Positions 1 to 64,000 are shown, counted from the first letter of the stretch. The stretch is 64,000 nucleotides of DNA from Raillietiella orientalis (GCA_036172245.1 JAYWIR010000103.1:1-64000); one strand, 5' to 3'. Translations and numbers: made by a program. Notes: generated from the letters alone by a model not told the origin.

Positions 1-2029
1 TCAGAAGCCGGCACGTGTACGGCGTGCCGGTTCGTCGCGGCATCGGGCAGGGTGGCAGCCTGAGCCCCCTGCTCTTCAGCATCTACTTTGAGTTGGTGCT
101 GAGATCATACAGGGAGATTTTGGCAATCCTACCGAGCTCATGTCCCGGCACGCCGTCCGTGTCGGCCTATTCCTACGAACTTCTGCTTCTGCTTCCCGGG
201 TATACCACAGCATCGGCGTTCGAAGATTTATTTGAGTTGCTGAACCGTATGACGGACATCGAGGTAAACAGCTCGAAGTCGTCAATCATTATTCCGGACT
301 CCTTGCGGGTAGGACGGTCGGACTGGATCCGCTCTGGGATCCCCACGGGCGGGTAATTGAAGTACCTGGGCGTTCCGTTGGGGGACTTCTCGGTTGCAGA
401 AGCCAGGTCCGACCGTCTCCAAAAGGTGGAGCTGGCGATCGGTTCGTTCCGGGACGGCAAGTTTTACTTGCAGGAACGGGCCGCAGTGTGGAACGCTTTT
501 GCGTCCCCCGTCCTCCGCCATCTACTTTTTGTATGCACCATACCTTCCCAAATTCGTGAAAGAACAAGCGGCTTTATTAGAAAAGCCCTTTGGGGCAATC
601 GGAGGCTCCTTGTCCTTCTTAAAGACCTGTGCGCTTCACGCAGGGACGGTGGACTTGGTCTCTTGACGCTGGAGCGCATGAAGCGACAGCTCCAATTCCT
701 TAAACTTGCTTTTGTGGCAAAGTACTGGACCGCACCGTGGTGTGCGCCTTCAAGATTTGTTGCTCACAGGGGAACCGACTGCCATGGATTGACCTCCATC
801 CTAGTAGCGAATGACCTTAGCCTTTACCACTGTGGTTTTCAGCTGCGGGACTCGGTTGCCCTGTTTTGTGACAATCCGTGGATCTCCTATATCCTTGCGG
901 ACTGGACTACCTGGCACCAGGAATCCGTTTCCGCATGGGCTAAAAGCAACCGCTCCAGCCAGGAGGACTTCTCCTGCCTCCGTAGAGGCAGATGCGCTGG
1001 TCAGCCACTGCAGGAGACCGTCAGCAACCCAGGGAAGCTTCTGTTTGCCTGCTTTACCCCCCTTGCCACAGTGCTGCCCTCCTTCAGGGAAGTTTGGGAC
1101 AGCCAGCAGGAGGCATCGTGGGAGGTGTCCTGTCTCATTGGAGGCAGGAAAAAAGTAGTGAAGGCGTAAACGTCCCGGGAATTAGCGGACGCTAGTACCC
1201 TGAATGTCTTGTCGAATGGAATTTAACGATGGGGCGCGCTGCTCGAAGTTCCTCCGGAGGAGGTGAAGTGGCCCCCGGCGTTGTGGGATAACGGCATTGT
1301 TCCCCTGCAGTGGCAGGAGACGGCGTTGCTTCTGCTCCGCTGGGGACTGTTACGCAGAGCGCGGTTGTATCACTGGACACCGGGGAGTTAGGATGCTAAT
1401 TGCCCGGTCTGTGGGGAAAAAGAAACCTTTCCTCACTTGATCATTGAGTGCGTTGCCCTTCACGATGTGTGGGACCGACTCTCGTCGAACTTGAACATTC
1501 CGCGGGGCGACCCGAAGAACGTTTTACGACTGCTGATGCGGGACACCTTGCCAGCTTCCTGGTGTGTAGCAGTGCTCTGTTGCATACGCGGAATACTGGA
1601 CAAGTGGACCGCATCAAGGGAAGGACATGCCAGTAGGAATGCCATCCACTGGGCAACCACCTCCTTGGAGAAGGCCTGCCGTGTGCGCCGACTTGGAAAA
1701 CATTTACAGGCACGCGTCCGCATCCGTGACCGGATGCAGAGGCCTCCTCACGGCGTACCGTGATTCCTTCCCTTCCCTCCCCCTCCCGAAGAACATTACC
1801 CTCCCAGGCGTTTTCTTTTTTTTTTGTTTATTTTTCTTTTTCCCCGCCCCTTCGCCAGTGTGGAGGACCTTATTGGCCTTCAAGTCGGTAAGGACAAGTG
1901 CTTCAGGATAGTCGGGCAACGTTTCTAGACTAAAGAAAACTTTATTGAAGAAATATGGCTTTATTATGAAATTTTTGTTGTTATTGAAAAATTTTAATAA
2001 TAACAGCCCCGAGTCATTTAGGTGAAAAA
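1..2029 (+). mobile_element. LINE family A copy 1, 3' half (degenerate ORF2 RT/C-terminus + 3' UTR)
   Basis: Motifs GIGQGGSLSPLLF, KYLGVPLG, GGLGL and CPVCGE..H...C; 3' end aataataacagccccgagtcatttaggtgaaaa; homologous to 56227-57886. Confidence 0.9.
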
Positions 2030-2702
2030 CCCACTGTTGAAATTGTCAACAGCGTGGGGAGAGAACCGACGGAAGAGTCCGTCATCCAGACCTTTTTCGA
2101 TGACGACGCCTACGAGCGTGCGGCGGAGGAGCTGGCTGCATCGTTACAGCCAGACGCCTCCAAGGCTGGCAAAAAGGCAGTGAGGCGTCCGCCTTCCACC
2201 CAGGAGTCGGTAACTTCCTACCCCGAGGCGCAGGCCGGAAACGAAGTTTCCATTTCCGCGGATCCCCGTCGGAAGGCTGCGAGGAAGTCCAGCAAACCCC
2301 GGAAAGCGCTTCTGCCAGCCGAAGGCGTGGAAATGACTTCCGACTGCGAGGGTGCCATGAGCCTGGGAGAATCCCGGCAATCGTCACCCGAGAGACTACC
2401 ACGCACAGACACGGAAGAGATGGAGGGGGTGGAATTAGGAAAGGTACCCCAGCTGCCTGAGGAGACCGAAACCCTAATGGTCATCTCAGCCGCCTCCGAA
2501 GAGCCGAGTTCCCCCACACCGTCATCTTCCCGGCAGTAATGCCGGGAATCTCCTTTCGCCGTCGTCTGCGCATCGCCGTATGGAACGTAAACGGCATGAC
2601 AGACGCCGGTAGGAGAGGAGATATGACCGCCAATCTGGGATCGTTCGCCCTTGCGCTGCTGCAGGAGATCCATGATATCTCTACAGAAAAAGCGCAAGAG
2701 AT
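2030..2702 (+). mobile_element. LINE family C fragment: ORF1 C-terminus + start of ORF2 endonuclease
   Basis: AAEELAASLQP..KAGKKAVRRP, TAATG at 2537-2541, then IAVWNVNG..LLQEIH; cut at AQEI by family E. Confidence 0.88.
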
Positions 2703-5700: not shown

Positions 5701-7283
5701 GAAAATCTCTGCTATTGACTACACTCTCTCCGAAGCCGCGCGGAAGCTAATGCAAGGGAAACCAGCAGCAAAACTCGCGGACCGATCTTTTTAGATCGCC
5801 CTAGTCAGCGAGCTCACTTATGGCAGAGCCGCGGAGGTACTGACGAAGATTCTCCGCCGCCTTCGGGTGACTTAGCCAGTCTGTCTGCATCCTCCAAACA
5901 CAGTTAGGAGGCCCCATGCCTGGCGGGAGCAACTCGAACTCGAGCCTGTTGTGGTCTCAAATTACGGACGGCATGGGACCTTTCCGACCCACTCGAGAGA
6001 GCAAGTGTTAATCGAGGAGTACATGGTCCGGTGATGTCGCCATAACAGGGTCGACAGCGAACAAGTTGCACGCGTGCACGGACGCGTAGATCTCTTCCAC
6101 TAGTAACTTTTACCTTTTGTGTGCGCTATTCTCGGTCAGCAGGTGTGCGTTAAAGTCCCTCGCAATGAGATGGGACACAGTAGAATGAGAACGAGTAAGC
6201 CACTGGCTCTGAACGGTACGAAAGAACTCAATCCTTTCGTCCCATCGTCGAGCACCGCTCGGCGCTAACACGTTCGTTAAGAAAAGGTCATTCGAGTCGG
6301 ACCACTTGAGTACAGTCTGTCCAACTCGGCCTTCCGTGTCGAAGCGAACGCCACGCACCGCACCCACCAAAGTTCCTCGTACGAGAAAAGCGACGCCGAA
6401 CGTACGTGGGACGCCGCACCTATGATGTAGCGTTCCGTCCGCACGCCGTTCGATTTCGGCAGCCTGGTATTCGGAGATGCTGTGAATCTCCTGCAGGAAC
6501 GTCAAGTCGAAGGCTCTCTGAGCGTTAGCTACTAGTCGCCTCTTCTCGTCGTGTTGGAGACCTTTGACGTTCCAGCACGCCACGGCAACACGACGAGAAG
6601 ACGCAATTGCCCTCATCAAAGCTCTGAAAGCGAGGTCGTGGTGCTCGACTCACCCGACGAGCGGGCAGTAAGCAGCACGACGGACTGGAAGGCGCGGTCA
6701 GACCGGCATCCAGCGTGCTGCGCGTAATCGAGTGCTTCTCCCCTGGTGCAGAAACTGTGGGTTCTGGGGTGAGCACTTGCCGTTTCTCGGCGAGTGTGTC
6801 ACGCCTCAGGGCTTCATCCCTGCGGGCGCTCGCTCCCGCGCAAGTAACGCGTCGTTCAGCGGCGCTATCGAACTCCTTTGCGGAGTCTGATGCTCGCACG
6901 ATCGACGTGCGTTTGCATCCTTCCGATCGCAGAAGAATCGTCTTCTCAGTGGTCACAGAGGCGGACTTGCACGCGTTGACGGCGCTGGCTTTTTCATGGG
7001 CAGAAGAACCCTCCGCAAGTGTTTTCTTATTCACGCGGCTGTTCTTTGCTTTCAAAGAGCTCGCAGATGGAGGTTGCAAAGCCTTATTGGAAGATTTTTA
7101 TTTTCCTCTACCCACATCGTTTTATTCTCCGTCACGATTTACGGACGCTTTCGCGACTTTCATCTCGGAAACCTCCAGAGTTTTTGCTGCAGCCTCTAGG
7201 GGCGTCGCTTTCGACATGTCTTTAAAACGAGACAGCAAGTCACCTTCTTGGCAGTCGGGAGATTGCTCCTTTCTTGCCAAGTC
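2703..7283 (-). mobile_element. LINE family E copy 1 (ORF1 3' part, degenerate ORF2, 3' UTR)
   Basis: WNVKG/LQEIH endonuclease (6110-6619), KAPGEDG, DLPKAFD, CLRCGEIESFPHLLLDC; colinear with 33275-37867. Confidence 0.92.
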
Positions 7284-7931
7284 GGCCTTCCGGAACACTT
7301 CAGCAACTTCGTGAGAGTGGTAATCAAAAACCAGTACTGCCGAAAAAACATCAACAGAAAGGAGACGGCAGCAATCCGGATGGAACGGGGAGTCCGACAG
7401 GGCGATTCGCTAAGTCCGATGCTGTTCGTCATCTACATGGAGGCGTTGTCGTCCTTTATCGAGAACAGCGGACGACTGCAAGGCATAACAATCGATGGCC
7501 AGCGGCTTAACCATCTGGCATACGCTGATGATCTACTCTTCTTTATCAAGGGAGAAAGAAATCAACGAGCGTTTCCGGATGTGGTAGACCTGATGGATCA
7601 AGGTCTGGGTGTAAAGATCAACGCTCAGAAAACCCAGCTCTTGCCCGTTGTAATCCTCGATCTCTCCGCTCTAGCGGGGAGAGGATTCGGAACGGTGGAC
7701 AAGGCCAAGTACCTGGGTGTCTACATTGGTGACGTCTCCGCGTCGAAGCTACTGTGGACCGAGATCCTAGGGAAAACGGCCAAGGAAGCAGCCAAGTACA
7801 CCCGAACGGACCTTGGAATGAAGCGAAAGGCCAACATATGGAACGGAGTACTCCTTTCAAAAGTGCTCTTCGGGCGGCCTTTGCGAGGATGAACAAGAAC
7901 ACCACGAGAGAGTTCGACAAGCTGCAGAGAA
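7284..7931 (+). mobile_element. LINE family B copy 1, RT-only fragment (5'-truncated, 3' part lost)
   Basis: GVRQGDSLSPMLF, LAYADD, KYLGV; near-identical to 45441-46090. Confidence 0.9.
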
Positions 7932-10056
7932 GCAGCACACTATGTCTTGTTGTGCGATGGTCCGCACAATCAATTTTGTTTTTTCCTGGTCGACCACACC
8001 GTTTACATTCCAGGATGCGACGTTCAGCCTCCTGGCGATCGATAGGAAAGAGGCCATAAAAGGGGATGTCCTATTTGTTGGCCTTCCTGAGCTTCTTCCG
8101 TCTGAGAGAGCGTGCTCTTCCAGACAATGAAGAAGCATCGGGCTCACCGCTGCCAGCGTCACTCTCTGTTCCGGTGAGGTCGATTACTTCCGCCTCCTCC
8201 GTAGAGTGTTCGGCTCGCGGGACCAATTTGCGAGATATCGCTTCTATCTCGTCCTTGGTGCAGAACTTCGCCATTACGTCGAGAAGCTATTCTTCTTTGT
8301 CTCGCGTTAGGTGACCTCCACAACGTGGTTCAGCTTTTCGTGTGCATTGCAGATGTTCTGCAAGATTTTCTCTTTCTGATGCCCGCTTTGCAAATCGATA
8401 ACTTCCTCCGCTAGTGTTGCCAACTCCTCGGTGGACTACAGGGCCTCCTGCGACAATGGAGTTGCTTCCTGATTTCCTTCTTTCACGCCTTTCTGCGCTA
8501 CGTCTATCTTTTCGCCTTCCTGCGCTGCTCCTACTAGGATAAAAGGGGTTTCTTGCTCCTTGACGAGCATCCTCCTCTTTCCTTTCTTTCCTACCTTAAT
8601 GAAGCCGTCCGTCGATACCTGGACCGCTTCCTTCACCTTCTTCGGCCTTCATGCCAACTTCTGAGGCTGTTCCGCCTCCTCGATCTTTCTCTTTCTCAAG
8701 GGAGAGAGTCCTAGAATCCTTCTGCAATTCGCGAATTCCGGACAGCTCCATTTAGCATGTCCGTGCTTCTTGCAGAAGGTGCACACCTCCGGTTGCGGGC
8801 AGTTCCAACCTTGATGTCCTACTTTGACGCAGCGGAAACAACGGCATGTTGGGTAAGTGCCAACCCTGTGGCCGAACTGCTTGCACCCTGTGCAGAATAC
8901 GGGTTGTTGCCGGTAGCGCACGTTCACTCCCTGGGATTGTTCGTCAATGAACGCCAACCCAGGTAAAACCGCTCCCTCCTTTATCTTGATCTTGGCGATA
9001 ATGTAGCCAGAAAATATATTTCCAGAGAAGTTCTGCAATTCAAGGTCCAGAACCTCCCCAAACTGCTCCAAAAAGTTCCAAACCGTCAGCTGCGGTGTGA
9101 GGATGGAAATGCCGTTTAAGAAGACGGTCGTGTATTGCATCTCGCCAATACCACAAACCATCCTTCCTTGAATATTGATTTCCTTCTGGATCAATCTCTC
9201 TCTGATGTTTTCACAGTCTGAAAATACTGTAAAACCGTTGCTACTTGGTATAATCGCACGTATGCGATCAAAATCGATATCTGCTTTATCGAGGGACAGA
9301 TACATCTTCCTGATATTGTTAAATTTTATTAGTCCATTCTTGAAAATAATGGGCCTTACATTCGGCCCTAGCTCGACTATCGGACTATCTACCTTTTGAA
9401 CTTTTCCACATAGCGGCTTTCCAAATTTCCGTATCCGGTGGACATACGCTTGTCCAGCCGCCACCGAGGCATACGAAAAGGGCTGCGCCGCCGCAGCCGA
9501 ACATGATGGAGTCACGTCCTGTACCGCGTGGACGCCCCCGGATCCCGCCTGGGACGCCGCCGCCGCGGGCGCAGCCTTCGACGTTGCCACCGTTGCCGCC
9601 GCCGGCGGCACCCTCGGAATCGCCGCCGCAGGCGCGACCTTACCGCCGCGGGAACGATCCCTGGCGTCGCCGCAGCGGGAACGACCTCCACCGTCGTCGC
9701 CGCCTGCCCGTCCCTTGGCATGCCCGCCGCGGGCGCGATCCTCGGCATGCCTAACACTGCCCCGCCTTTACCGTACGTTACCTCCATGGCTTCCATGGGG
9801 GACGACGGTCTCTCCACTCCTCCTCCAGGTGCCTGCATCCGGGCAGCTGGTCTTGCTGCACGGGACGACTGCAGGTCTTCCGCCGTGATCTCCTCGGCGC
9901 TTCTTTTCTAGCTGTATGAGGAGATTCTATGCAGCACACTTTAGTCCACACTCATTTCCTTCTGGATACTTTTTCTATCCGGGCACAAACGATCACAATC
10001 AACTGAATAATCGTCGTCGTGCGAGCAATACTTTGAGCCACGGAGGAAGGTCAACG
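7932..10056 (-). mobile_element. LINE family B copy 2, 5' part (5' UTR, ORF1, start of endonuclease)
   Basis: ORF1 8649-9611 with CTGCKQFGH/CFRCVKVGH/CTFCKKHGHAKWSC knuckles; ASWNVNGVVD. Confidence 0.92.
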
Positions 10057-10065
10057 ACTCGGCAG

Positions 10066-13000
10066 TTTTCCCCAAGTTCCACGAGGGGTAAGGTAAATTA
10101 ATTTTTCTAAAATTTTTCTATAAAAACGTCTACACTACAGAATCCTTCATACCATTAGCACTTTTTTTTACCACTATGAAGTCCTTGGGTTCTCACAAGT
10201 TCTGCACTCATGGTGGGTTTCCTGCTGTTTGGTCCCGGGCGTCGTCTTCTATCCTCTTCAGGATGAATCGGTACGTCCAGGCTTGGATTTTCCCACAGTT
10301 TGTAATGCCGATTTCCCTCTTCAGAAGCCCTTGTAGGATCTCCAACGGTGGTGCGGCTCTTCTGGCTTTCCTCATTAAACATCACCTCACAAGTTTGGCG
10401 GTGATGAAGAGAGCGATGGTCGTCCTCACCATGTGAATGTAACAGGGAACATTACCATCTCCCTGGAACATCCAGGCGAGGATCTCCATTACGGACCTGG
10501 TGGTGAGTATGATGAGCCTTTTCAGGATCAGCCAGTCATGCAGCGATGTGGAACACGTCAAGACGTGAAGTCTCGTGTCGATATCTCCACATGCTGTGCA
10601 GTCTCGATCTTCTCTTCTTCCGGTGTAGTGCTGCAATCGGGACCCACTCTGGATTCCTCCATGATAAAACATCAGGAGGTCATCCTGGGTGCCCGGCGGA
10701 AGGACACACCTCCAGAGCGTCGTGCCAGTCGCTAACAGGTTGATCCGGTCACTCCCGTAAGGATCGGCGGCTTCCTGGAGGGCGCTTATATTACTGTCTT
10801 CTTCTTGAATTAGTCTTTGGAGGTTTGTTTTGGTTACCCTGGACCACGCAAAGTCGTTGTGGTTGAGCCACACTTCGCGAGTCATGTAGGTAAACCTTCC
10901 TAACATCATCTCTGTATACCGAAGTATACGAGTTTGATGTAGGTACCCTCCTCGTTTCCACTCCTGGATTCGTTGAAGGGTGACCTTGGACCGCTGGTGG
11001 ATCCAGCTTCTCGTGTCCGGCGGGACAGGAAGCATCCTAGGGATCACCAGGATAGACTAGTCCTCCCAGGATTCCCTACTTCTCGGCACGATCTTGATTT
11101 TGTGCTTTCGCACCAGCCGTGGCTTCCTCGTCCAGATTGGTTCAATTTATTTCCATTCTCCTGCTCGGCCTAGCAGAGCAGTCGTCAGGCCTTTCGAGTT
11201 GTTCAAGAACAACGCGTAGGCCCTGTGCGCCGCATACGGCCAGTCATCCCAGTGAGTGGCAATGTCCAGGATGTGTCGCGTATACATGATTTCTATGGAG
11301 TGTGCAAGCAACTTCATCCCGGAACCGCCTTCTTCCCTGGGACGACACAGGGGTTTTAGTCGGATTCTTGGGCGATAGTGGCCAAATAGTGTTTTTCTCT
11401 GCAGCTTATCGGACTCTCTCGTGATGTTTTTGTTCATCCTCGCGAAGGCCGCCCCGAAGAACACTTTTGGGAGGAGTACTCCGTTCCATATGTTGGCCTT
11501 TCGCTTCATTCCAAGGTCCGTTCGGGTGTACTTGGCTGCTTCCTTGGCCCTTTTCTCGAGGTTCTCGGTGCACAATAGCTTCGACGCGGAGACGTCGCCA
11601 ATGTAGACACCCAGGTACTTGGCCTTGACCACGGTTCGCAATCCTCTTCCCGCTAGAGTGGAGAGATCGAGGATTCCAACGGGCAAAAGCTGGCTTTTCT
11701 GGGAGTTGATCTTTAGACCCCGGCCTTGATCCATCAGGTCTACCACATCCAGGAACGCTCGTTGATTTCTCTCTCCCTTGATAAAAAAGAGTAGATCATC
11801 AGCGTATGCCATATGGGTAAGACGCTGGCATTCGATTGTTATGCTTTGCAGTCGTCCGCTCTTCTCGATAAAGGACGACAACGCCTCCATGTAGATGACG
11901 AACAGCATCGGACATAGCGAATCGCCCTGTCGGACTCCCCGTTCCATCCGGATTGCTGCCGTCTCCTTTCTGTTGATGTTTTCTCGGCAGTACTGGTTCT
12001 GCAGTACCACTCTCACGAAGTTGCTAAAATTTTCAGGAAGGCCTAGCTTCTCCAGAACCTTCAGCAGCATCCCGTGGCCCATGGAGTCGAAAGCCTTCTC
12101 CATGTCAGTGAACGCCAGCACCAGGTTCTCGCCTTCGTTTCGGCTGAGTCCTACGGTGGCATGGGCACAATTGACATTGTCCGACATGTGACGTCCAGGG
12201 ACTGCATACGTTTGGACCGGAGAGATGCGCCTCGACTTGAGCTTGCCTAAGCGGTTTGGCCAGATCTTCGCCAACCACTTGGCATCCGAGTTCAGGATCG
12301 AGATTGGCCTCCATTGAGCGACCTGCGTGAGGTCCCCTCTTTTTGGCAACAATGTCATCCGACTCTCGTAGAAGGACTGTGGCATCTTCCTTCTTCGCGG
12401 ATGCAGAGGGTTAACTGGTGGAACAAACGCAGGTAGGCATGCAGGTACCGCTGATAGTGAGTGATGGTTACGCTGTCAGAGCCCGCTGCCACGTCCTTGG
12501 GTAGTTGACCAAACGCAGTCTTCACCTCATCTTCGGAGAACTCCTCCTTCAGTCTGTTTCGCCGACATCGTCGGTCCTCTTCTCGAGGTAGCTCAGAAAG
12601 GCCTGTTGACTAGAGCGACAGAGATGTTGTCGCCTGAAGTGTTTCGTGTAATGCCTGTGAAAGGCATCCACGATGTCCTCAGACGACTGTCGCAATTGAC
12701 CGTCGTACAGGATGCAGAAGATATCTGTCGCCAGATTTCAGTTTTCCAGCACGTCGAACTCCCCTTTTATGTTCTTGAAGACGTACCGACTCTCGTACTG
12801 ATCCAAGTACTTTGAGAGTGAGCGCTCTTGAATGTTCAGCTCCCGGTACGTCTCCTGCCTCAAACGCCTATGCCCGAACTGCATGTTTGCAAACAGGTGT
12901 ATCCTGTGTTTCAAGCTGTCCCATTCGGCGACTCTTCGGATTGTTGTTCCCTTCAGAATCGTCTCCAGGACAGCCTGATGACCGGGATGGGTTTCGAATC

Positions 13001-18389: not shown

Positions 18390-18402
18390 TTCGCTCTAGG
18401 GC

Positions 18403-18409
18403 GGACGTG
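18403..18409 (+). promoter_or_regulatory. DPE-like core promoter element GGACGTG in the family C 5' UTR
   Basis: Recurs at five element 5' ends: 18403, 23979, 39765(-), 48764(-, AGACGTG), 55965(-, GGACGGG); matches the RGWCGTG DPE known from Drosophila LINE promoters. Confidence 0.6.
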
Positions 18410-44888: not shown

Positions 44889-44892
44889 AACT

Positions 44893-48774: not shown

Positions 48775-50086
48775 AGCGCAAGAGATCGAACGGATCTCCG
48801 GAGGGCGGCTTTGGTACAGGCGTGGGAGACCGAAAAGTTGCGGTGTCGCCTACCTGCTTCGGCCAGCCGTCGACGCCGCGGCTCCGGGCGTGTGGTTCGA
48901 CTATCACGGTCGTGTCGGCCAGCTGACTCTCAGGTGGTCCGACTCGATCGATCCGATCGTCACGAACGTGTACGCACCGAGCGGCAAGGACCTGATGAAC
49001 AGGACGGCGAGGAAAAAGGTTTTTTCCTTTCCCTCCGGCGATACTGGCTGACCGAACCAGGCGTGCGGAATGCGCATCTGGTTGCAAGCGATTTCAACGT
49101 TCGCCTGAAACCAGATGGGCAGAATCTTGAGCGTGACCTGGTCAACGAGGTGTGCATGGCGGTGCACACCTGTAATTTGTTGTTCAGTGCACCGGGGATG
49201 GAAGACAGCATTGACCACGTGTTTCCTGACGAGCACCTGTGCCCTCGCGTGGGCAGGCGCGGCAAGTTACCGTGCGAGCTGTCCGACCATCGCCCGCTAG
49301 TCCTCGAGATTCATCCGCGCGACAAGGGCCCCCTCTCGTCAGCGTGGCGTCTCCCAGGGGACTGCTTGAAGCTCCCGGACGCGGCGGAACATCTCCGTAC
49401 GATCATATGGAGCTTCACGCTGCAGACACTCCAGGATTGGGACCTCTTCAAGCGGTCGGTACAAGAGTTCTGCGACCAGATCCCTCTGCACCGCCTACCT
49501 ACGGGTTTCGGGACCGGGGTCCATAACGAACGAGCCTACCTTGAGGCCCGTCGTTACGCCAGGACCTCCGACATCCGCAGGCTGGCGGAATACAAAGCGG
49601 GAGCCGAGAAGCAAGCCTGGCAGTCCGGATCGGACAGCTTGCTGGACGATCAGGGCAAGGAGCACTCGGTACCCGCCCAAATCCGCGGCCTGCTGCGGAG
49701 TTACTACTCCTCCCTGTATGCCGGGGCACCTCCGGAGAGGAACGTCTCAGGACTCCTGCTTCCGGAAGGCGCTCCAGCGATCGGGGAGGAGGAGAGAAAG
49801 ACCCTCGACGAGCCTTTGACGATGAACGAGATCCTCTCGGCCATCGGAAAGCTCAAGAAGCGCAAGGCTCCAGGGGAGGACGGCCTGCCCGCGGAGTTTT
49901 ACCAAACTTTCGCGGCTGAGCTTACCCCCCTGGTACAGCAACTCACCTTGCTGATACGCGAAACAGGTGACGTTCCCGCCTCGTTTCCTTCGGCAAAGGT
50001 GCGACTCCTCCCTCAGGGAGGAGACCTGAGGAGCATGAACAACTGGCGTCCCATCACAATAGTGAATGCGGACTCCAAGTTGCTAG
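48775..50086 (+). mobile_element. LINE family C copy 4 fragment (from EN AQEI to RT NADSKLL)
   Basis: Colinear with 20313-21622; both ends coincide with insertion sites of other families. Confidence 0.9.
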
Positions 50087-52180: not shown

Positions 52181-55100
52181 TTCCTCGACTTGGCAGGTCG
52201 AAGAACTCCTCTACCGCCGATGCCGGGTTGGACATGGGGAGCAGTAGCAGTAGGTCGTCCGCTTATGCTGACACCGCGGGCGTACCGGGATAGTCGCGCG
52301 GCAGGTGCGCTAGAGTTTCCCTGTACGCTCTCAGTACCAACTCGAAGTAGGTACTGAAGAGCAAGGGACTTAGGCTGTCTCCCAGACGTATGCCGCGTCG
52401 CACCGGTACGCCGTGCACGGAGTGTCCACTGAAAAAGATCTGAATGAGCGCGTCTCGCCAGCAGGATTGCAGGTAGTTCAGCAAAGAGACCGGGAAGCCC
52501 AAGCGTTCCAGGAGCTCCAAGAGGAGCCTCTGGTCGACACAGTCGAATGCTTTATGCAAATCGACTGCGACTGCGAGGGCTCCCTCCCCTCCTCAACCAT
52601 CCCGTTTCCTAGCGGCGGACATTCCGGAAGTCAGGTTGCCCATCCTGACCCTTTCCTGTTGGAGCCGGAAAAAGGTGCAGGCGAGGAACAGGTTAGTATC
52701 CATGCTCCGCCCGGGAACAGCATATGTCTGCTCCGGGCTAATGAAGCTTTCCGCTAACCGCCCCAGGCGTTCAGCTCACAATTTCACCAGCAACTCTGGG
52801 TCCGCGTTTATCACGGTAATCGGCCGCCAGTTGCTCATGCTCCGAAGGTCTCCTCCCTTAGGGAGGAGCCGCACCTTTGTCGAACGAAACGAGGCGGGGA
52901 CGTCGCCCGTTTCGCGGATCAGGAAGGTGAGTTTCTTCACCAGAGGAGTGAGTTCTGCCGCAAAACATTGGAGAAATCCCGCTGGCAGGCCATCGTCCCC
53001 TGGAGCCTACCGCCTCTTGAGCTTTCCGATGGCCGAGATGATCTCGCCCATCGTGAAAGGCTCGAAGCGGGTCTTTCTATCTTCCTCCCCGATCGCCGGA
53101 GCGCCTTCCGGAAGAAGTCGCGAGACATCCCGTTCCGGTAAAGTGAGCGCGTACAGAAAGGAGTAGAATTTTTTTATAAGCCTTTTACCTGGGAGGGGGC
53201 CGAGTGCTCCGAACCCTGGTCGTCCAGTTAGCTGGCCAACTCGGATTGCTACGCCTGCCTCTCGGCTCCCGCACGGTATTCGGCTAGCCTGCGTACGTCT
53301 GGTGTTCGCGCGTAACATGGAGATTGTAAATACCATCTCTCGTTACGCACGCTTTCACCAAACTCGGCATGCAGAAGGTTCATAGGGAACTCGTCGCAAA
53401 AATTCCGGACCGAGCGCTTGAAGCGGTCCCAGTCCTGAAGCGTCTTCAAGCTGAAATCTCGTATGAATCCGCGGAGATGCTCCGCGGCTTCCGGAAGTTT
53501 CAGATAGTCTCCCGGTAAGCGCCACGCAGATGACGGCGGACCCCTATCGCGTGGGCGCACCTCGAGTACTATCCGGTCATGGTCCGACAGTTCCGAGGGT
53601 AACTTGCCGCGCCTGCCCACGCGTGAGCATAGGTGCTGGTCAAGAAACACGTGATCTATGCTGTCGACATTTCCGGATCTCCCTCGAACAAGTTTCGCGT
53701 GTGCATCGCTGCGCACAGCTCGTTCACGAGGTCCCGAAGTGTGTCGGACGCACCTGACAGCAGGCGCAGGTTAAAGTCACCTGCGATTAGATGCGCTTTG
53801 CGCACTCCCGCTTCGACCAGATATTCGTGCCTCAGGGTAAGGAAGAAATCTCTTCTTGCCTTTGCCCTTAGCGCGTCGCTGCCGCTTGGGGCGAACACGT
53901 TGGTAATGACCAGATCGATGGCGTCGGACCACCTGATGGTCAACTGCCGACGCGACCGGCACTATCGAACCGTACACCTTTTGCCGCAGCCTCGACAGCT
54001 GGACGAAGCAGGAACGCGACACCGCAAGATTCAACGGTGCCGCAACGCCACAGCAGCCGTCTACCGGTGATGCGCTCGATCTTCGTTGCTTGATCTGCGG
54101 TGATCACGTGGATCTCTTGCAGCAGCACCAGGTCGAACTATGTCAGGGTGGAGGCCACGTCTCGTCTCTTGCCGTCGTCGCATAGCCCGTTGACGTTCAA
54201 CCAGGCAATTCGCAGACGGCGGCAAGAGGCGATTCCCGGCATTAAGGCTGGGAACTTGGCGTTGCAGCATTTGTCAAAGGATAGGTGGGAGGGACGAGTA
54301 AGGGGACCGCGGCCATCTCAGGCACTTGAAGCACCTGGGGCTCAGACTCTACACTTTCTCTCCCTCCGAGGTCGCAGCTTGGGGTTCCCTCTCGAGGAGA
54401 GTCCCCGGAGTTTCCCACTTTATTCGCACGCTCGCTTCCCTCAATTATCTCTTTCTTTTCCACGGACGGAATAATTTTGCGGGTCGCTTTCTTCGTGCGA
54501 TTGGCCTTCAGGCGGGAGGTCGCGATACCGCAGGCTGTGTTTTCCGCCTCTGCGTCAGAGTTTGGAATCTCCGACTTCTTGATCGAGGTCGGACGCCTTA
54601 AGGCCTTTTTCGCGGATTTAAGGGGATGCTGCACGGACTCAGCGAGCTCCTCCGCCGCTCGCACAAAGGCGACGTCGTCGAGCATGCGTTCGACGACGGA
54701 CGTTACCGCCGGGTCGATAGCCTCCGGCATTAGTTCGCCGGAGGGCTGAAAGTCGGCAGCGACGAGTGCAATTTTGCCGCTCTTTTCGACCGCAGGAATG
54801 CGCTTGATGACGACAGAGCAGCGTTTGATATTTTCGCGACGCGGCAAATTCTCGCTGCGTTTCGCGACATTTTTTTTTGCTTTCTCGAGGCTTTTCTGCC
54901 TCTTGGATTTTACTACCTGCCATCCAGGTTTCTGGCTGTTCTCCTCCACCCTGTCCGAGTTTTCCAAGATCTCGGAGATGACCTTCATCTGGGACACGAT
55001 AGTTGTTTTTCGAGCGGCGGCTCTCTCTCGGTCTGCCTGAGCTCGTCTTTTTCTCGCCGCGCGCTTCTTCGCATTACGTGCGGACGCGACGCGGACTTTA

Positions 55101-55971
55101 TTTTGCGGGCACACTGGAAGAGTGTGCTTGGGTTGCTTGCATTGCTTGCACTGCAAGTGAGGGCACCTTTTTTTCAGGGGACCTGAAGTGCTGCAATGCC
55201 CGCAGAAATATGGCTTACCGACATACCAGATGTCAACGGGTTCGCCGTTGACCTCCAGCTTGTTAGGTAGGGAGCAACCCTCGCGGACCGTGATTCGCGC
55301 AGAAGCCATACCGCAAGTCAGGAGATCGTACTCCCAAAACGGAGTCGGCCTTTTCCACAACGCGTGGACAGTTCCAAATTTAACTAGTTCATTTCGGACA
55401 GCCTCTTCGGCCATCCGGAATGTGATTCCGAGGAGGTGGATCACGATAGATCTATCCTCCGTGATGGGGAGGAGCCGGCGATTCCCTAAAGGAACAGGTG
55501 TACGGAGCAGACTCTGGGCAAGACTTTCTTCTTAGCAAATCACCTCAACGTACTGTCCACCACTCCCGATGGTCATCGCCAAGAGCTCCTCCTGTGGTAC
55601 TTTGAGGGAGTGCATCGCTTTCGAGAAAGCGCGTGCACTCTCGAAGGAGTAAAGGTTGCCTACCTTGTAGAGTAGAGGGGGATTGTACCCCTCCTATAGG
55701 TAGGCTTTTAACTCAGCCGCAGCCGCTTGCGTTGGCGCCGCAGCCACGGAACTCCAGCTTCTCCCTAGCGAGCGAGTCGCTTCTGTGGGGGCGGTTGCCT
55801 CCACATCCATTGATTCAGTAGGCAACATAGACGTCGCCCCCTTCTTAACATTCGTGGTGGTCCCAGGCATTGCTGCCTAGCCACCACCGAATCCACTGGC
55901 ACACCAAGAAAAAAAAGAAAAACAATAAAACCACAAACGCTCAAGAGCGAAACAAAAACCCGTCCGCTCTC
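52181..55971 (-). mobile_element. LINE family G (C-related): 5' UTR, ORF1 (55870-54242), ORF2 to just past YADD
   Basis: CGHCSTSG..C, CKQCKQPKHTLPVC; TAATG; GDFN, IDH, SDH; HKAFDCVD. Confidence 0.88.
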
Positions 55972-58900
55972 GCTCGAGGACTGGGACGATCTGAAAAGAT
56001 CGGTCCGCGAGTTCTGCTGCCGGTTTCCCTTGCACCACCTTCCGCGCGGCTCCGGAGAGGGCGTAGCCAACAGCAGAGATTTTCTGCAGGCCCGCTCCTT
56101 TTCCAAGCGCGCGGACGTTGGTTGATTATCCGAGTACAAGGCCAAGGCCAAGCGCCAGGTCTGGCAGTCAGGGGCGACAGTTCTGCTCGACGACCAGCAC
56201 CGGGAATGCTCGGCTCCAGCCGACGTTTTCCACCCGGATATTCCGGGGCATTTATTATTCTAATTTTTTACAAAAATTAGATAATAAAGTCTTAAAAAAG
56301 ATGTTTTTTGTGGGAAAACACTGGGTTCTCCTACCTTGCTCGACGTGTCGGTTGCCGGTGCATAGACCGGTTAGGTCCATTACCGAGGCGCATGGGAAGA
56401 AAAAACTAGAACAAAAACAAACAAAAAGAAAGATAACGGGGAGGGAAACAGTTATATGGGGAGAGGGGAGGGGCAGGGAAGGGATCACTGGGCGCCTGGG
56501 TCGGTCCTCCGCATCCTGTTGAAAAAGCAGTCAAGTTCGGTTTTTATTGTGGAAGGTAGACGCCACCTTGTCGCCGTCTCTAAAGAGATCGTGGTCCAGT
56601 GGATGGCGTCCCTGCATCTTGAGCCTCTTCTTCTGGCGTGCCACCTTTGCACAATGCCCCGCACGCAGCAGAGGACTGCTAGAGACGCAGCGGGGCGCAG
56701 GCCGTCACGCAGAAAGAGGCGACGGTAAATTTTCTTAGGGTCGCCTACTGGAAGATGGAGGATTGGGGCGATTCGACTCCAGAGTCCATCCAGGGCGACA
56801 CACTCGAGGGTGAGATGCGGGAAGGTTTCTCTTTCTCCGCACTCGACACAGCGGGCATCCACATTCCCCAGTGTCCAGTGAGACAGGCGTGCTCTGCTTA
56901 ACAGTCCCCAGTGCAGAAATAGCAATGCCGTCTCCTGCCACTTCAACCGAAGTGTGCCGCAATCCCAACACGCTGGGGGCCACTTCACCTCCTCCGGAGG
57001 TATTGCGAGCAGCTCTCCCCAGCGCGCAAGTCCGTGAGGCGGAACGCTCGGGGTGGCAGCGTACGTGAGCTCCCGAGTCGTCCACGCCTTTAAAGGTTCT
57101 TTCCTGCCTCGGATGAGGCAGAACACTTCCCACGATGCCCGCTCGTTGCTGCTCCTAGTGTTTTTTAGGGAGGACAGAACGGGGGCAAGGGGACTGAAAG
57201 AAGCCCACAGAAACTTCCGGGGCGTGTTGATAATCTCCTGCAGCGGCTGTCGAGCGTACGGTCCTCGTCGTAGGCAGTTGTATTCCGCCTCGCTCGTGCT
57301 GTTGATCTTAGCCCACGCGAAAGCTGACTCCTGAAGCCAGGCAGTACAGTTCGCGGGGAGGCAGGAGATCCAGGTATTCTCCCTCATCAGGGCGACCATC
57401 TGGCGCAAATCAGGGCCACAGTTGGAGAGGCTGCGCTGGTAGGCCACGAGGATCGAGGACAATCCTTCGAAGCCGGTCGCTCTTCTGGCGAGGAGCCGTG
57501 CCGCATCGCGCCATGGCGTCATCCATAAGCTAGCCGCAAGAACTAACTTTCGAATTGTTGTTTGAAGTTGGATGCGCTCTAACGTAAGGAGGCCCAAGCC
57601 ACCATCCCTGCGTGGAGCGCAAAAGTCTTTCAATAGGACTCGCGACCTCGCTGTGCCCCAAAGGGCAGTCCTTAAGAGGGCTTTGGTCCGTTTCTGTATG
57701 ATGGGAGTGGCGGGGCAAACAAAAAGTAAGGGGCGAAGGAGGACGGCCGCGAACACGTTTCACACAGCGGCCCGCTCCTCCAAGTAAAACTTGCCGTTTC
57801 GGAACGGGCCGATCGCCAACTCCACCTTTTGGAGACGGTCGGACAAGACTTCTGCAACGCAAAAGTCCCCCAACGGAACGCCAAGGTCCAGCCGACGTGC
57901 GACGGATAGTCAGGCGCAATCACTCTTCTCTGTATGCAGAGGCACCGACGGAGCGCTGCCTCTCCCGGCTGCTTCTGCCGATTGATGCACCTGTTGTAGA
58001 CGACAAGGAACGCGGGCGTCTTGATGAGCCCTTCACAGCAGAGGAAATTTCCTCGGCCATCTCGGGGCTCAAGAGACGAAAACCGCCAGGCGAAGATGAG
58101 CTCCCCGCGGAATTCTTTCAGTGTTTTGCGGCGGACCTCATCCCCCTGGTGCTCCAACTCTCGTCGCTGATGCTAGACTCGGGCGATGTCCCCGCCTCGT
58201 TTCGCTCAGCGAAGGTGCGTCTACTGCCGAAAGGCGGAGATTTGCGCCAACTGAACAACTGGCGTCCAATCATATTAGTGAATTCGGACGTCAAGTTGTT
58301 CTCGAAACTTTCGGTGGCGCGAATGGGTAGGATCGCAGAATCCTTGGTAAGTCCGGAGCAGACGAAAGCTGTTCCAAGGCGGTCCTTGGACGCGAATCTC
58401 TTGTTCATCCGCACATAGCTGCAATTGCAGCATCGTGTGGCGGTGGATCGTCGTGCGGAAGCAACGCCTTCGATCTCTCACCGAGGGAGGCGCGGGACGC
58501 AAAGGGAGACATTGGAAGCTTTGGCGGTTGCAGTCGATTTGCACAAAGCTTTCGATTGCATGAAGCAAACGCTTCTTCTTGAGCTTATGGAACGTCTGGG
58601 TCTTCCGGCATCCCTGTCGGCCTACTTGCGCTCCTGCTGGCGCCACGCGAATACATCCATTGTTATCAGTGGCTGTCGCGTGTATGGCGTGCCGGTACGA
58701 CGAGGAATTAGGCAGGGTGATAGCTTAAGCCCGCTGCTCTTCAGCATCTATTTTGAATTGGTGCTGGAGGCTTACAGGCTGACGCTAGCCAACCTGCCGA
58801 GCTCCTGTCCAGGTACGCCGGCCGTGGCAGCCTATGCCGACGACCTGCTTCTCCTGTTGCCCATGTCCACCCCGGCGACATCGCTTGAAGACTTCTTTGA

Positions 58901-60767
58901 GTTGATTCGTCGCGCTGCGGGCGTGAGCGTTAACAGGAGTGAGTGTATGGTTGTTCCGCAGGGTTCGACGTGGAAGGGGCAGTCCGACTGGATTGGCTTG
59001 GGGATCCCCACGGGCAGGTACCTCAGGTACCTTGGCGTGCCGTTGGGCGACTTCTGCATCTCAGACGCGTGGTCGGACTGCCTTCGGAAGGCAGAGCGTG
59101 CACTTAACCCGTTTTCAGGAGGCGAGTTCGTCTTGCCGGAACGGGCCTGCATCTGGAACACCTTCGTTGCCCCTTCTCCTCCGCCCCCTGTTTTTTGTTT
59201 GTCCACCCCCCCAGAAAGTCAAAGTCTGAGCGCAGCGCCTTCTACGCAAAGCGTTGTGGGGCGCTGCAAGATCCCGTGTTAGACTTGAAGTCTTGGTGGC
59301 GCCGCGTCAGGATGCAGGCTTGGGCATCCTCGACTTCAACAGTATCGAACTGCAGGTGCAGTTTCGCATGCTGCGGCTCTGTGCGAAGCTGTGGTGTACG
59401 CCGTGGTGCTTACCCGCACGCCTTATACTAAGGCGCTGCACGGGAAGCGAGGGACTGCTTTCGTTGCTACCCCACTTTCGGCACGCCAGAATTGGGTTTG
59501 GCTTCCCGCTGAGGCAGCTGTCCTCACTGCTGGAAGCCCAAAGCTGAATCATCTGCCGCCCCATGAACATTAATGCATGGCGGCAGGAATCTTTTTCATC
59601 GTGGGCAGCTTCCGAAGGAACGCGCCCGGAAGATCTTCGACGCCTGCGACTTCTCCTCAGTCATCAAATGGACGAAGTCATGCAGGACAAGAACATGTCG
59701 GATCGTCGTGCCGCCACACCACTCGCCGCAGCTCTGTCTGCCGTCAAGGCAAGCAACGACGGTTGCCTACCGGCGGAATGGAAGTTCTCCTGCGAAATAG
59801 CGGGAGTCAGTAAGCTCCTCGGCAGCTGGACGACAAAGGAGCTGGTGCAAGCCGCCAATCCTCGGAATCGGGCGAAGGGCCTGCTTCGGTGGAGCGAACA
59901 TTTAAGTGTGCCCCCCAAAGAGATAGTGGTTCCCCCCGTTTGTTTGGACAGCTCTGTGTTCCCCCTAAAGTGAAAACAAGATGTGCTGCTCTTTTCACAT
60001 TGTGCATTACACTGTAATAGGCAGCGAAGCATCGTTTCCGGGGGAGCTGCTTTGCCAAACTGTTTAAGGTGCTCAGAGATCGAGTCTTTTTCGCACCTTT
60101 TGCTGGGCTGCGGTGACCTCCGGGAACTGTGGCGAAGGCTCACTTCGGCCATCATGCCACAAGGAGGCACTGCCATTGATGTGCTGCGGCGCTTCTTCAG
60201 CAGAAATGGACTTTCGGTTCGCGCGATTGTCGCAACCATGTGTTGCGTTCGCGCCATCGTGAAGGCCCGCTACGCCCTGGAGTTGTCAGCGCAGCGAAGG
60301 GAGGCTCACCTGCTTGCAGCTCAATTCATGGAGAAGGCTACAAGGTAGTCTCATCTTTGTAACAAGGTGAAAGAGGACATCACCGGCATACATCGCCGGT
60401 TTCCAGACCTTTGAGAACGACGTAATCCGGTGACCCCTGCGACCTCTTGCCCACCAATACCCCGTCCCCGTTCGCTTGGTGAAATTTCCAGTGTTCATGC
60501 TTTTATCCCCGTATCTTCCAGAGCGATCCCAAAGACCCTTATCCCGTCCTCCTTATTCATTGTTTTTATTTTATTTTAATTTCTTTGTGTTCCCCGCCCC
60601 CTCACACCGTTCGCAAAGCTTTTACTCTGCCCTGCGTGCCAGCAATATTCTCTTTATTCTTGTTCAGTCGTCGGTTGGGAGTTTGGTTCCCAACTGGTTT
60701 ATTTTCTATAATTGCTTTTTTTGGTTATGTTATATGGAATAAACGCCCCGGCGTGACCGGGTGAGAA
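55972..60767 (+). mobile_element. LINE family E copy 4 (ORF2 linker to 3' end), interrupted by family A copy 2
   Basis: Colinear with 34746-37867 apart from the 56227-57886 insert. Confidence 0.93.
56227..57886 (-). mobile_element. LINE family A copy 2, 5'-truncated, perfect 12-bp TSD
   Basis: TSD tccagccgacgt at 56215-56226 and 57887-57898; ORF2 C-terminus 57756-56485; 3' end aataaatgccccggaatatccgggtggaaa. Confidence 0.95.
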
Positions 60768-61312: not shown

Positions 61313-64000
61313 TTTACACCCGGGTACGCCCGGGGCGTTTATTTTTAAAAAAACTCTACATCCGCGGTACAAGGCCCCGCTCGCGGCTATATGCACTGGA
61401 CCTGACGGGACGCTGGGACGCAGCCCAGCGTAGCGTTCCTCAGCAGCGAAGGGGGATGGGGATAAAACAAAAAGAAAAATAAAAAACATAAACAGACAAA
61501 AAGAAGTTGGAGGGCAGGGAAGGGATCACTGAACGCTGTGAGGAGGGCCCATCCGTTGAAGGAAGCCCTTGAGGTCCGTCCGTATATTCCCCAGTTGGGG
61601 CCATCCGGCAGCTCTCCGCATGAAGCGTTGGGCGTATGGGACGACATCCCTCGCGTGTGGACCCACTCCTTCGTTATTGGCGTCGCTCCATGCCGCCACG
61701 ATGCCACGGACACAGCACAAGGCTGCGATGGCTGCGAATGGCTGCAGTGCGTCCTTCACGAAGAGGGGCCGAAGAACGTCTCTGGGGGTGCTGCCCGTAG
61801 GGAGCCCTAGGGTCGCCCCGAACCGTTCCCAGAGGGGTCGGATGGCAGCACAATCCACAATAAGGTGGGGAAGCGACTCCCGCTCCCCGCACCTAGCACA
61901 CGCAGGATCCACAGCTCCCCTCGTCCAGTGGAAGCGGCGCGCGTTGCAGTGTAGACCCCAGTGCAACAAAAGCAACGCCGACTCTTGCCACTTAAGGAGC
62001 AGGATCCTGGATTCCTTTAATACCGGGGGCCACTTCAGCACATCTTTAGGGATGGCGAGCAGCTCGCACCATCTCATTAGTCCACGCGGCTGGACGCTCG
62101 GGGTCGTGGCGTCCGCCAGTTCTCCTGTGGTCCAGCCGCTTAACATCTCCCTGCCTGCGATCTGGCAGGTGACTTGCCACCTCGGCTTCTGGCAATCCTG
62201 AAGCGCCCTTAAGAGGTAGGGCATCGCCGTAGCAAGAGGGGTCGTCAACGCCCACCTGCGACTCCGAGGAAATTCCAGTATTTCCCGCAGGGTGCGGTTG
62301 GCGTATGGGCCGATTCGCAGGCAGTTCATGTGGTTTTCGCTCCTCCGGTCCAGCTTAGCCCATGTGCCAGCAGACTCCTCTAACCAGGCGGAGGAGTTGG
62401 CGAAGCCACAAACCATCCAACCGTTCGTCTTCGCCAAGGTTGCTATGCGTCCGAGCATAAGGCCGCATCTTCGGATCTTCCGGCCAGGGCACAGAAGACA
62501 CGACGCGAGTCCTTCGCATCGGGACACACGCCTGGCGAGGTGGCGGGCCGGAACGCACCAAGGGGTGCTCCACATCTTCGCTGCGATGGCGAGGGTTCGC
62601 CACCGCAGCTGGATTTCCACGCGTTCCAGCGTCAGAAGGCCAAGACCGCCGTCCGGACGCGGAGCGCACAAGTCCTGCAGAGGGACTCGGGGCCTCCCCT
62701 TGCCCCAAAGGGCGATGCGGAGGAGGTCCTTCGTCCTCTTTTTGCATTCTCTGGTGGCGGGGCAAACAAAAAGCAAGGGGCGGAGGATGGGGGCCGCGAA
62801 GGCGTTCCAAACCGCGGCCCGTTCCGGCAAGTAAAACTTGCCTTCCAGGAACGGGCCGATCGCCGTCTCGACTTTTTGAAGACAGCTGGGCCACGCCTCC
62901 GCAGGGGAGTAGTCACCCAACGGCACACCAAGGTACTTGATGCACCTCGCCGTGGGGATCCCCAGACGGACCCAGTCCTGCTGCCCTGCCCACGCCGCAC
63001 CTACTGGCACCACCGACGACTTCGCCCTGTTGACCTGCAGTCCGGTCCCACGGCTGAGCAGATCGAAGAAGTCTCCGACCGCCTTCGCCGGGGTGGACAT
63101 AGGTAACAGGAGCAGAAGTTCGTCGGCATAGGCTGCTACGGCGGGCGTGCCGGGACAGGAGCTAGGCAAGGAGGCCAAAGTCACCCTGTAGGCTCTCAGC
63201 ACCGACTCAAATTAGGTGCAGAAGAGCAGGGGACTCAGGCTATCTCCCTGCCTGATGCCCCGCCGCACCGGCACGCAATGCACCTTCTGACCGCTGAAAG
63301 AGACGGAAATTATCGCATGGCGCCAGCAGGAGCGCAGGTAATTGATCAAGGAGGGTGGGAAGCCCATGCGACCCAGGAGCTCCAACAAAAGCCTCTAATC
63401 AACACAGTCGAACGCCTTATGGAGATCGACTGCGAGCGCTAAGGCCCCCTTCCCCGCCCGGGAGTCCATTCCCTGCCCTGCTGGCGGCCCCAAAGTGGGG
63501 TTGCCGATTTTTCCTTTCCCTTCCTTTTGACACCTCTGCGCGTGCATCCACGTGCTCGCGAAGAAGAGTTTGGCATCCATACTTCGCCCGGGAACAGCAT
63601 ATGTCTGCTCCGGGCTAATAATGGATTCTGCCACCTGCCCCAGACGCGAAGCCCATAGCCCGGCAACCAACTTGGCGTCCGTATTCACAATCGTGATCGG
63701 ACGCCAGTTGTTCAAATTCCTAAGGTCTCGCCCTTTCGGAAAGAGCCTCACTCTGGCTGACCGAAACGAGGCGGGAACATCGCCTTCGTCTCGGATCAGC
63801 CTTGTCAGCTGAAGCAGCAGGGGTGCCAGCTCTTCCGCGAAGCTCTGATAGAACTCCGCGGGCAAGCCGTCTTCCCCTGGAGCTTTCCGCCTCTTGAGCC
63901 TTTTGATACCGGCGAGAATTTCGCCGGAGGTAAAAGGCTCATCGAGGCTTAACGACTCCTCCTCCCCTATTGCCGGGGCAACATCCGGAAGCAAGAGCCG
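61313..64000 (-). mobile_element. D-like LINE (divergent subfamily), RT to 3' end; continues beyond the window
   Basis: KAPGEDG, DLHKAFD, AYADE, CARCGERESLPHLIVDC; 3' end aataaacgccccgggcgtacccgggtgtaa. Confidence 0.9.

Follow-up and report, generated by a model that had tools for sequence, protein, structure and literature searches.

The closest described counterparts of a genomic domain built from long interspersed nuclear elements (LINEs) nested in one another are the Zepp clusters of Chlorella and Coccomyxa and the ZeppL clusters of Chlamydomonas. Zepp inserts into existing Zepp copies to form one cluster per chromosome, and the clusters of both are thought to mark centromeres (PMC8226300, PMC3446292); here and below, our statements on published systems follow the excerpts of the sources at hand. 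We analyzed a stretch of 64,000 nt from Raillietiella orientalis (GCA_036172245.1 JAYWIR010000103.1:1-64000; hereafter the window, within whose 64 kb all of the analysis lies) that resembles these clusters in consisting of LINE-in-LINE insertions, tandem arrays, 5' truncated copies and little else. However, Zepp and ZeppL each represent one family inserting into itself, whereas the window features at least eight families inserting across families. Further, unlike Zepp as described in those excerpts, the window shows antisense insertions at single-nucleotide sites in coding motifs, with target site duplications (TSDs) of fixed length and short tails other than poly(A). Clusters of ZeppL or L1 are also reported in the Chlamydomonas v6, CENH3/ZeppL and Chlorella T2T (telomere-to-telomere) preprints, the excerpts of which describe no nucleotide-specific sites.

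A second set of parallels comes from transposons with defined targets. Tx1 targeting Tx1D and Tourist inserting in Tourist are known cases of transposons targeting transposons (PMC6719617). Like Tx1L/Tx2L of Xenopus, which target Tx1D/Tx2D (PMC6719617), the window elements are LINEs with an apurinic/apyrimidinic (APE)-type endonuclease that insert sequence-specifically into another transposon; however, Tx1L/Tx2L have a DNA-transposon target and form single pairs, whereas here layers of related LINEs lie in each other's coding motifs. Similarly, R1Bm, whose endonuclease cuts both target strands specifically (PMC1919474), and TRAS/SART share with the window elements a defined multicopy target, precise insertion and repeated use of a site (PMC1919474, PMC7265360), but their targets are host ribosomal DNA or telomeric repeats rather than other retrotransposons. 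Transposons inside transposons are likewise seen in Tourist-in-Tourist miniature inverted-repeat transposable elements and in nested centromeric Athila (PMC6719617; bioRxiv 10.64898/2026.09.17.752431). These show a preference for a region or an element with TSDs that differ between insertions, as in the nested Athila with non-shared TSDs of the centromere atlas preprint (bioRxiv 10.64898/2026.09.17.752431), in contrast to the single nucleotide used here. The known targets of site-specific LINEs are multicopy genes of the host, telomeres and, in one instance, a DNA transposon; those in the window are conserved coding motifs of sister LINEs. The literature searched yielded no account of LINE families that mutually target one another's coding motifs, although the sites of Zepp itself may already have been mapped precisely.

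Our analysis makes it probable that the window is a LINE-only cluster nested by target-primed reverse transcription, in which at least two families, and probably three, are specific for a coding motif of another family. Nucleotide-specific, independent insertion across families is established for two pairs, namely E into C-type and B into E-type elements, and is probable for a third, C into F.

Recurrent insertion of E into C-type and B into E-type elements

Self-comparison and junction look-ups tiled bases 1-64000 completely with 29 LINE pieces, which we named A1, B1-B5, C1-C5, C'a, C'b, one C-like fragment, D1, D1', D2, E1-E4, E', F1, F2, G and H. An earlier note on this DNA had claimed that every junction joins LINE to LINE; this holds for all 27 junctions of the tiled map, and the coordinates it gave all lie within 2 nt of the re-mapped ones. 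An intact terminus or a TSD is present at 22 of the 27, with recurrent sites accounting for 14 of these 22 (E 4, B 6, C 2, D 2). The pieces, with the strand on which each is read and with RT and ORF denoting reverse transcriptase and open reading frame, are:

1-2029, plus: A1, 3' part of an A-type LINE running off the window start, with an RT match; 3' end (..AGGTGAAAAA) at 2029
2030-2702, plus: C'a, C-type fragment between the A1 and E1 3' ends, 77-78% identical to C1 and C3
2703-7281, minus: E1, from the B target site to the 3' end, which lies at the AQEI site of C'a
7282-7931, plus: B5, 5' truncated B broken at 7931, 92-94% identical to B1 and B3
7935-10057, minus: B4, 5' part of a B with its intact 5' end at 10057 after the B1 TSD
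10058-15694, minus: B1, full-length B (10065-15694) plus the 7-bp TSD copy TGCCGAG (10058-10064)
15695-15810, plus: E', divergent E-type fragment with the B target motif; right boundary approximate
15811-16306, plus: C-like fragment, endonuclease-domain end and linker, flanking the F1 3' end
16307-18389, minus: F1, from the 3' end to the RT KAFD codons; target/TSD TCGAACGCTTTG at 18378-18389
18390-23953, plus: C1, full-length C of 5564 bp with degraded ORFs; empty E site 20312-20329, empty D site 21606-21627
23954-25163, plus: TSD copy TCGAACGCCTTG (23954-23965), then C2, 5' part of a second, tandem C
25164-27610, minus: F2, F-type, 3' end in the C2 ORF1 region, 5' truncated in the RT; empty KAFD site 27216-27230
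27611-27641, plus: E2 remnant, short piece upstream of the B site, head-to-head with the truncated end of F2
27642-33275, minus: B2, full-length B in E2; ORF1 of 573 aa, ORF2 pieces of 630 and 345 aa
33276-37867, plus: E2, from the B site to the 3' end at the AQEI site of C'b; endonuclease domain 33910-34563
37868-39776, minus: C'b, C-type, from the AQEI site back to the 5' end; 5' boundary approximate
39777-42762, plus: D1, from the endonuclease-RT linker to the 3' end (..GGGTGGCAA)
42763-44888, minus: C3, C piece with D1 at its DAKLL codons; empty E site 44055-44072
44893-47423, plus: B3, 5' truncated B with an open 732-codon ORF2 part; 3' end 47416, TGCCGAG 47417-47423
47424-48774, minus: E4, 5' portion of an E between the B site and the intact 5' end at 48774
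48775-50086, plus: C4, C piece starting with the 12-bp TSD ATCTCTTGCGCT (E-strand reading); D1' at its DAKLL codons
50087-52180, minus: D1', D from the 3' end to 5 nt past the KAFD 15-mer; inverted-repeat partner of D1
52181-55971, minus: H, C-like, 67-73% identical to C, from mid-RT to the intact 5' end at 55971; E-site homologue empty
55972-56226, plus: E3a, E3 piece 96% identical to E2 34746-35000, ending with the TSD TCCAGCCGACGT
56227-57886, minus: G, 5' truncated LINE inside E3 with a 12-bp TSD
57887-60767, plus: E3b, remainder of E3 to the 3' end at the AQEI site of C5
60768-61312, minus: C5, C piece with 91.5-93.7% identity to C1 and C3, the copies whose site is empty
61313-64000, minus: D2, D-like, 77.5% identical to D1; 3' end joins C5 in sense; runs off the window end

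Elements of the E family adjoin C-type sequence with three 3' ends (2702/2703, 37867/37868 and 60767/60768) and one 5' end (48774/48775). The three 3' junctions share a single nucleotide (..GGGTGAGAA / ATCTCTTGCGCT.., the slash marking the joint); read on the E strand, ..AATAAACGCCCCGGCGTGACCGGGTGAGAA is followed directly by ATCTCTTGCGCTT.., with a few substitutions in E1. Two C copies preserve the uninterrupted site ..GTTCG ATCTCTTGCGCTT.. at 20312-20329 (C1) and 44055-44072 (C3). At the 5' junction a C copy ends in ATCTCTTGCGCT at 48775-48786 before the intact E 5' end, and this yields a TSD of 12 bp. Read in the sense direction of C, the 12-nt duplication covers codons AQEI of the endonuclease, which lie 11 residues downstream of LLQEIH. 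The homologous site reads AAEI in E itself and ATKI in H; both differ from the target by several mismatches and neither is occupied. The identities of the elements and of their flanks are:

E2-E3: elements (last 2.8 kb) 95.3%, 540-nt flanks 79.8%
E1-E2: elements (last 2.8 kb) 87.5%, 540-nt flanks 73.4%
E1-E3: elements (last 2.8 kb) 85.8%, 540-nt flanks 77.7%

Moreover, the flanks of E2 and E3 belong to different C subfamilies, with that of E3 being 91.5-93.7% identical to two C copies whose site is empty. Duplication of a junction would equalize element and flank; since the flanks are far more diverged than the elements, the insertions are independent. Thus, independent E copies lie at one nucleotide of a defined target, and the prior claim of E insertion into the AQEI codons stands, with four junctions mapped, a TSD and flank divergence behind it. 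The same data speak to the idea that the elements are composites, arising by 3' transduction or from chimeric masters, so that the junction was inherited with the element. This would account for a 3' junction sequence that is identical across all copies of a family. However, the flanks diverge far beyond the elements and match different subfamilies, empty-site C-type copies exist, and the E 5' junction in C4 carries a 12-bp TSD. The divergence gap together with the TSD excludes 3' transduction for E, and we regard composite origin in general as very improbable.

The B family presents a comparable picture in E-type elements, with joints at 7281/7282, 15694/15695, 33275/33276, 27641/27642 and 47416-47424 that place B at one nucleotide of four E-type copies, as expected of a sequence-specific element. 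When the window was searched with a 21-nt motif of the B-strand target, ending at the joint (..GATTGCTCCTCTCTTGCCGAG), three matches with up to 4 mismatches were recovered, all three occupied at the same nucleotide (7281, 15695, 33276); E4 holds the other half of a B site. At their 3' ends the B copies carry ..GGGGAAAAC TGCCGAG, after which the 5' part of E resumes (at 47424 and 27641); this defines a 7-bp TSD within the SPTRQ codons of the ORF1 region. Two copies are full-length (B1, 5630 nt; B2, 5634 nt), and B5, although 5' truncated, begins at the exact B target nucleotide of E1. In addition, B1, TGCCGAG and the intact B4 5' end follow one another as a head-to-tail tandem. Of the B junctions formerly assigned to SPTRQ, those at the shared nucleotide are confirmed as independent, but 10057 is a B-to-B joint through the 7-bp TSD and not a joint of B with E.

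Over 5620 nt, B1 and B2 share 85.9% identity. Between their flanks (E' and E2, respectively), identity is 92% in the initial 25 nt and drops to 60% in the 90 nt that follow, indicating that the target motif is conserved between otherwise very different E-type elements. The B ORF2 displays dN/dS (nonsynonymous to synonymous substitution) ratios of 0.24-0.45 in frame as against 0.98-1.53 out of frame, and its differences concentrate at third codon positions (e.g., 66/59/147 for the three positions). Thus, the B copies diverged under purifying selection, implying that their lineages stayed active between insertions. The dN/dS values of E, D and C pairs showed no clear difference from the out-of-frame controls.

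These observations bear on the alternative that the recurrent junctions are ancestral ones copied by segmental duplication rather than products of targeting. Against it, divergence is 2-4 times higher in the E flanks than in the elements, and these flanks fall in different C subfamilies; the B1/B2 flanks are 60% identical as against 85.9% for the elements, and the B copies, which diverged under purifying selection, have differing 5' ends at one target nucleotide. Segmental duplication is thereby refuted for E and B within the window. By our own arithmetic, three further insertions into a 5.6-kb target would share a given nucleotide and strand with a probability of about (1/11,000)^3.

The mosaic might also be an artefact of assembling a repeat-rich region. 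One DNA sequencing run (run X1) and no RNA run was listed as matching the region; run X1 covers only 28% of the sampled words in short contigs, and independent long-read support is lacking. Its contigs, aligned to 33000-52999, are short pieces that give no basis for a genome-wide junction test. Nevertheless, chimeric joins would not produce TSD-flanked termini at one nucleotide in copies that differ by 5-27%. Further, a run-X1 contig ends at 48773, beside the E 5' terminus, and three others pass beyond the truncated end of B3 into B1/B2-matching sequence. We consequently give an assembly artefact hardly any credence. In the same run, the summed contig depth at 45006-47006, within B, is 83-92, compared to 7-38 over E, C and D; this suggests that B is the most abundant family in run X1, contig depth being a poor measure. 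High depth at 50222-50260 in runs X2 and X3 came from records of about 40 nt with G-rich tails and was judged spurious.

C in F-type, D in C-type and singly occupied sites

The third pair concerns C in an F-type element. F1 is interrupted at its RT codons KAFD, where ..CAG TCGAACGCTTTG is followed by the C1 5' end; C1 (5564 nt) ends in ..GGGTGAAAA, after which come TCGAACGCCTTG and the 5' end of C2. The 12-bp TSD copy between C1 and C2 has one mismatch, and the two C elements are 83.6% identical. This arrangement fits re-insertion into a regenerated site, as in B1-B4. Two junctions, 18378 and 23954, had been taken as C in F; the first is indeed such a joint and begins a tandem double insertion with TSD, but it involves a single F copy, and 23954 is a C-to-C head-to-tail joint. 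We also observed that D1' stops 5 nt past its own KAFD 15-mer (52161-52180), near the position at which C interrupts F1; the break is joined to H in the same orientation and not to a C 5' end.

D1 and D1' (joints 42762/42763 and 50086/50087) share their end point in the C RT, a single nucleotide within the DAKLL codons at which C1 is empty. This much of the claimed D-into-C site is borne out, but the pair lies in an inverted duplication of 3.4 kb (40663-44076 versus 52183-48770, 91.5% identical), each arm of which carries the D-C junction. Several findings here favor segmental duplication: D1 and D1' are 91.7% identical and their flanks 92.0%, a four-taxon count with H as the outgroup (12:5:4) slightly favors grouping C3 with C4, and the differences between D1 and D1' and between C3 and C4 show no clear codon-position bias. 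Therefore, for the D pair, one insertion followed by duplication is as likely as two insertions. The earlier note had itself named shared junctions spread by segmental duplication as the outcome that would overturn its reading; E and B escape this, whereas the D pair is compatible with it. As a general account of the recurrent sites, we consider segmental duplication quite unlikely. The inverted arms enclose a truncated B together with the 5' portion of an E, and the layout resembles a former palindrome that has lost its center.

Seven insertions (A1, F1, F2, G, H, C'b and D2) contribute eight junctions at positions seen once. D2 differs from D1 in its position in C and in its sense orientation, and A1 likewise ends in sense within a C' copy, 120 nt from the D2 position. 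G is a clean 5' truncated insertion in E3 with the 12-bp TSD TCCAGCCGACGT at 56215-56227, whereas the intact H 5' end adjoins E3 at 55971/55972. Both of the E linker junctions proposed previously are thus real, with 56215 belonging to G and 55972 being the 5' end of H; however, they lie about 240 bp apart in E coordinates, each seen once. The C'b 5' end adjoins D1 in the homologous linker region. The H-in-E3 and C'b-in-D1 5' junctions fall within about 10-20 nt of the equivalent endonuclease-RT linker position, near the DWD codons, and may represent a further recurrent site.

F1 and F2 are about 70% identical and end in C-type elements at different positions, with one junction each (that of F2 at ~25163); no convincing common motif was found in their flanks. 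F-type elements sit in C-type ones and C sits in F, as the notion of F closing a cycle implies, but site specificity of F is hypothetical and so, in consequence, is the cycle.

A further alternative is regional or chromatin targeting (e.g., to a centromere) devoid of sequence specificity, in which the junctions would join LINEs just because only LINEs are present. That the window is 100% LINE, that eight junctions from seven insertions lie at positions seen once, and that published descriptions confine the clusters of Zepp and ZeppL to particular regions (PMC8226300, PMC3446292) all agree with it. However, it fails to explain why four E and six B junctions fall at one nucleotide with fixed TSDs, or the re-insertion into a regenerated TSD. 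Hence, we think regional targeting without sequence specificity unlikely.

Proposed mechanism and network of families

We propose that related APE-type LINE families nest into one another by target-primed reverse transcription, with E, B and C each entering antisense to its target. For E, the first nick would fall in the C sense strand at ..GAGAT^CGAAC.., giving the 12-bp TSD; B enters the SPTRQ codons of E-type elements with a 7-bp TSD, and C the KAFD codons of an F-type element with a 12-bp TSD. As each insertion regenerates its target in the TSD, the site could be hit again, and head-to-tail tandems such as B1-B4 and C1-C2 would result. The remaining elements (A, D, D2, F1, F2, G, H and C') likewise lie within LINEs and have intact termini, at sites used once, or twice in the duplication, and the inverted duplication along with several deletions or inversions would have later reshaped the array. 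By analogy with R1Bm, each family's own APE endonuclease would make two staggered nicks and thereby set the specificity. A defined pair of nicks and precise initiation would fit both the constancy of TSD length (12, 7 and 12 bp) and the lack of poly(A). Alternatively, specificity might be determined by a separate DNA-binding domain or by pairing between the target and the 3' end of the RNA.

Several points weigh against recurrent, motif-specific targeting as a general property of these families. First, the evidence base is one 64-kb window, so that genome-wide peaks and insertions outside LINEs lie beyond its scope, and all element copies in it are degraded (84-95% identity) with no intact ORF2. 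Second, E3 and E4 could be the two halves of one rearranged insertion; hence we count three proven, independent E events and not four. Third, an occupied KAFD site is present in F1 alone: F2, whose 15-mer has one mismatch, is empty, and so are seven elements of other families in which the 15-mer has two mismatches. Fourth, the D pair carries no sign of independence, and the sites of D2 and the C' copies differ from those of D1 and C1, so that specificity is either labile between subfamilies or absent in them. Finally, five of the 27 junctions (7931/7935, ~15810, 27610/27620, 44888/44893 and 52180) are internal-to-internal joints rather than insertion junctions; these would stem either from deletions or inversions that came later or from insertions that were resolved aberrantly. 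Thus, the proposition that several families are each specific for a motif of a relative holds for E into C and B into E, and probably for C into F, while D, F, A, G and H are each seen once or in a duplication.

The targets being conserved coding motifs of sister LINE families, the elements supply their own targets. This might provide a safe haven or harm rival families. We further hypothesize a full, partly cyclic network with an adaptive meaning, a layered hyperparasitism of B on E, E on C, C on F and F-type back on C, in which every new copy would knock out a competitor and, by landing there, offer the next family a fresh target. In its most developed form, which we consider conceivable but somewhat doubtful, a guild of sister LINEs would partition coding motifs as private landing sites through their own endonucleases and thereby renew a LINE-only domain, possibly a centromere. 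Mutual targeting, if true, would explain the compact, gene-excluding LINE-only domains of the Zepp type. The window may also offer a concrete case of transposon-against-transposon competition and, in several closely related APE endonucleases with different targets of 12-25 nt, a natural series for how APE specificity is encoded.

Element class, kinship and composition of the window

A single ORF of B2 combines Exo_endo_phos (65.9 bits) with RVT_1 (51.4 bits; Pfam), the APE endonuclease lying upstream of the RT. This joint presence in ORF2 identifies the window elements as APE-type non-long terminal repeat retrotransposons; a C-terminal zf-RVT (23.7 bits, cut-off 27.5) and a zf-CCHC knuckle of ORF1 (18.9 bits, cut-off 20.8) scored below threshold. 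Hallmarks of target-primed reverse transcription are seen in the TSDs, which measure 12 bp for E, C and G and 7 bp for B, and in the 5' truncation of B3, B5 and G. Poly(A) or simple-repeat tails are not found; instead, 4-5 nt (AGAA, GCAA, AAAA, TAAA) follow a conserved ..CCGGGTG. In an RT tree with 22 database L1-like proteins, the window families form one clade with support of 1.0, with B as the deep sister to all others. When the protein collection was queried with the D1 RT and with the ORF2 part of B3, no close relatives emerged, the best matches being distant L1-like proteins of at most 33% identity.

The 3' end takes a common form, AATAAACGCCCCGG-loop-CCGGGTG-NAAA, in families A, C, D, E, F and G (3' ends 2703, 16307, 23953, 37867, 42762, 50087, 56227, 60767 and 61313), and the 22-mer of this end gave 5 matches compared to 0 expected by chance. 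The terminal motif is conserved, whereas its hairpin is predicted rather than demonstrated: a fold of eleven 3' ends has 7 pairs, one of the seven with a compensatory change. The shared motif might be a common RT recognition signal allowing cross-mobilization. A metagenome scan returned no loci with the exact 22-nt motif; a relaxed hairpin pattern hit 115 metagenome loci, none resembling the window or an RT (blastn, tblastn), and these are thus chance matches. A 5' motif around GGACGTGTTT is common to C, C', H and E; in the full-length C, C', H and E (5' ends 18390, 23966, 48774, 55971 and ~39776) it recurs, around GCGGACGTGTTTT, 6-13 nt from the terminus. The B termini differ from those of the other families.

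The window has a G+C content of 51-61% in 2-kb windows and abundant broken ORFs on both strands. A tblastn search with a database L1-like ORF2 (P0003) matched 19 RT stretches, again on both strands. Among 16 long ORFs, 5 exceeded the Pfam cut-off for RVT_1 and 1 that for Exo_endo_phos; in a second ORF set, each was found in 2 of 29, with the endonuclease domains in E2 and C1. Scans with Rfam and ARAGORN found no Rfam families or tRNAs in the window. At several joints (27610-27620, ~39776, 44888-44893 and 52180), truncated or intact 5' ends meet head-to-head or abut unrelated internal positions, which could be due to later deletion or to joined insertion intermediates. TRF detected no satellites and merely 8 short tandem-repeat rows, several of which correspond to a 27/48-nt tandem coding repeat in the B ORF1; its copy number varies among B4, B1 and B2 (9643-9703, 15307-15394 and 32834-33017, respectively).

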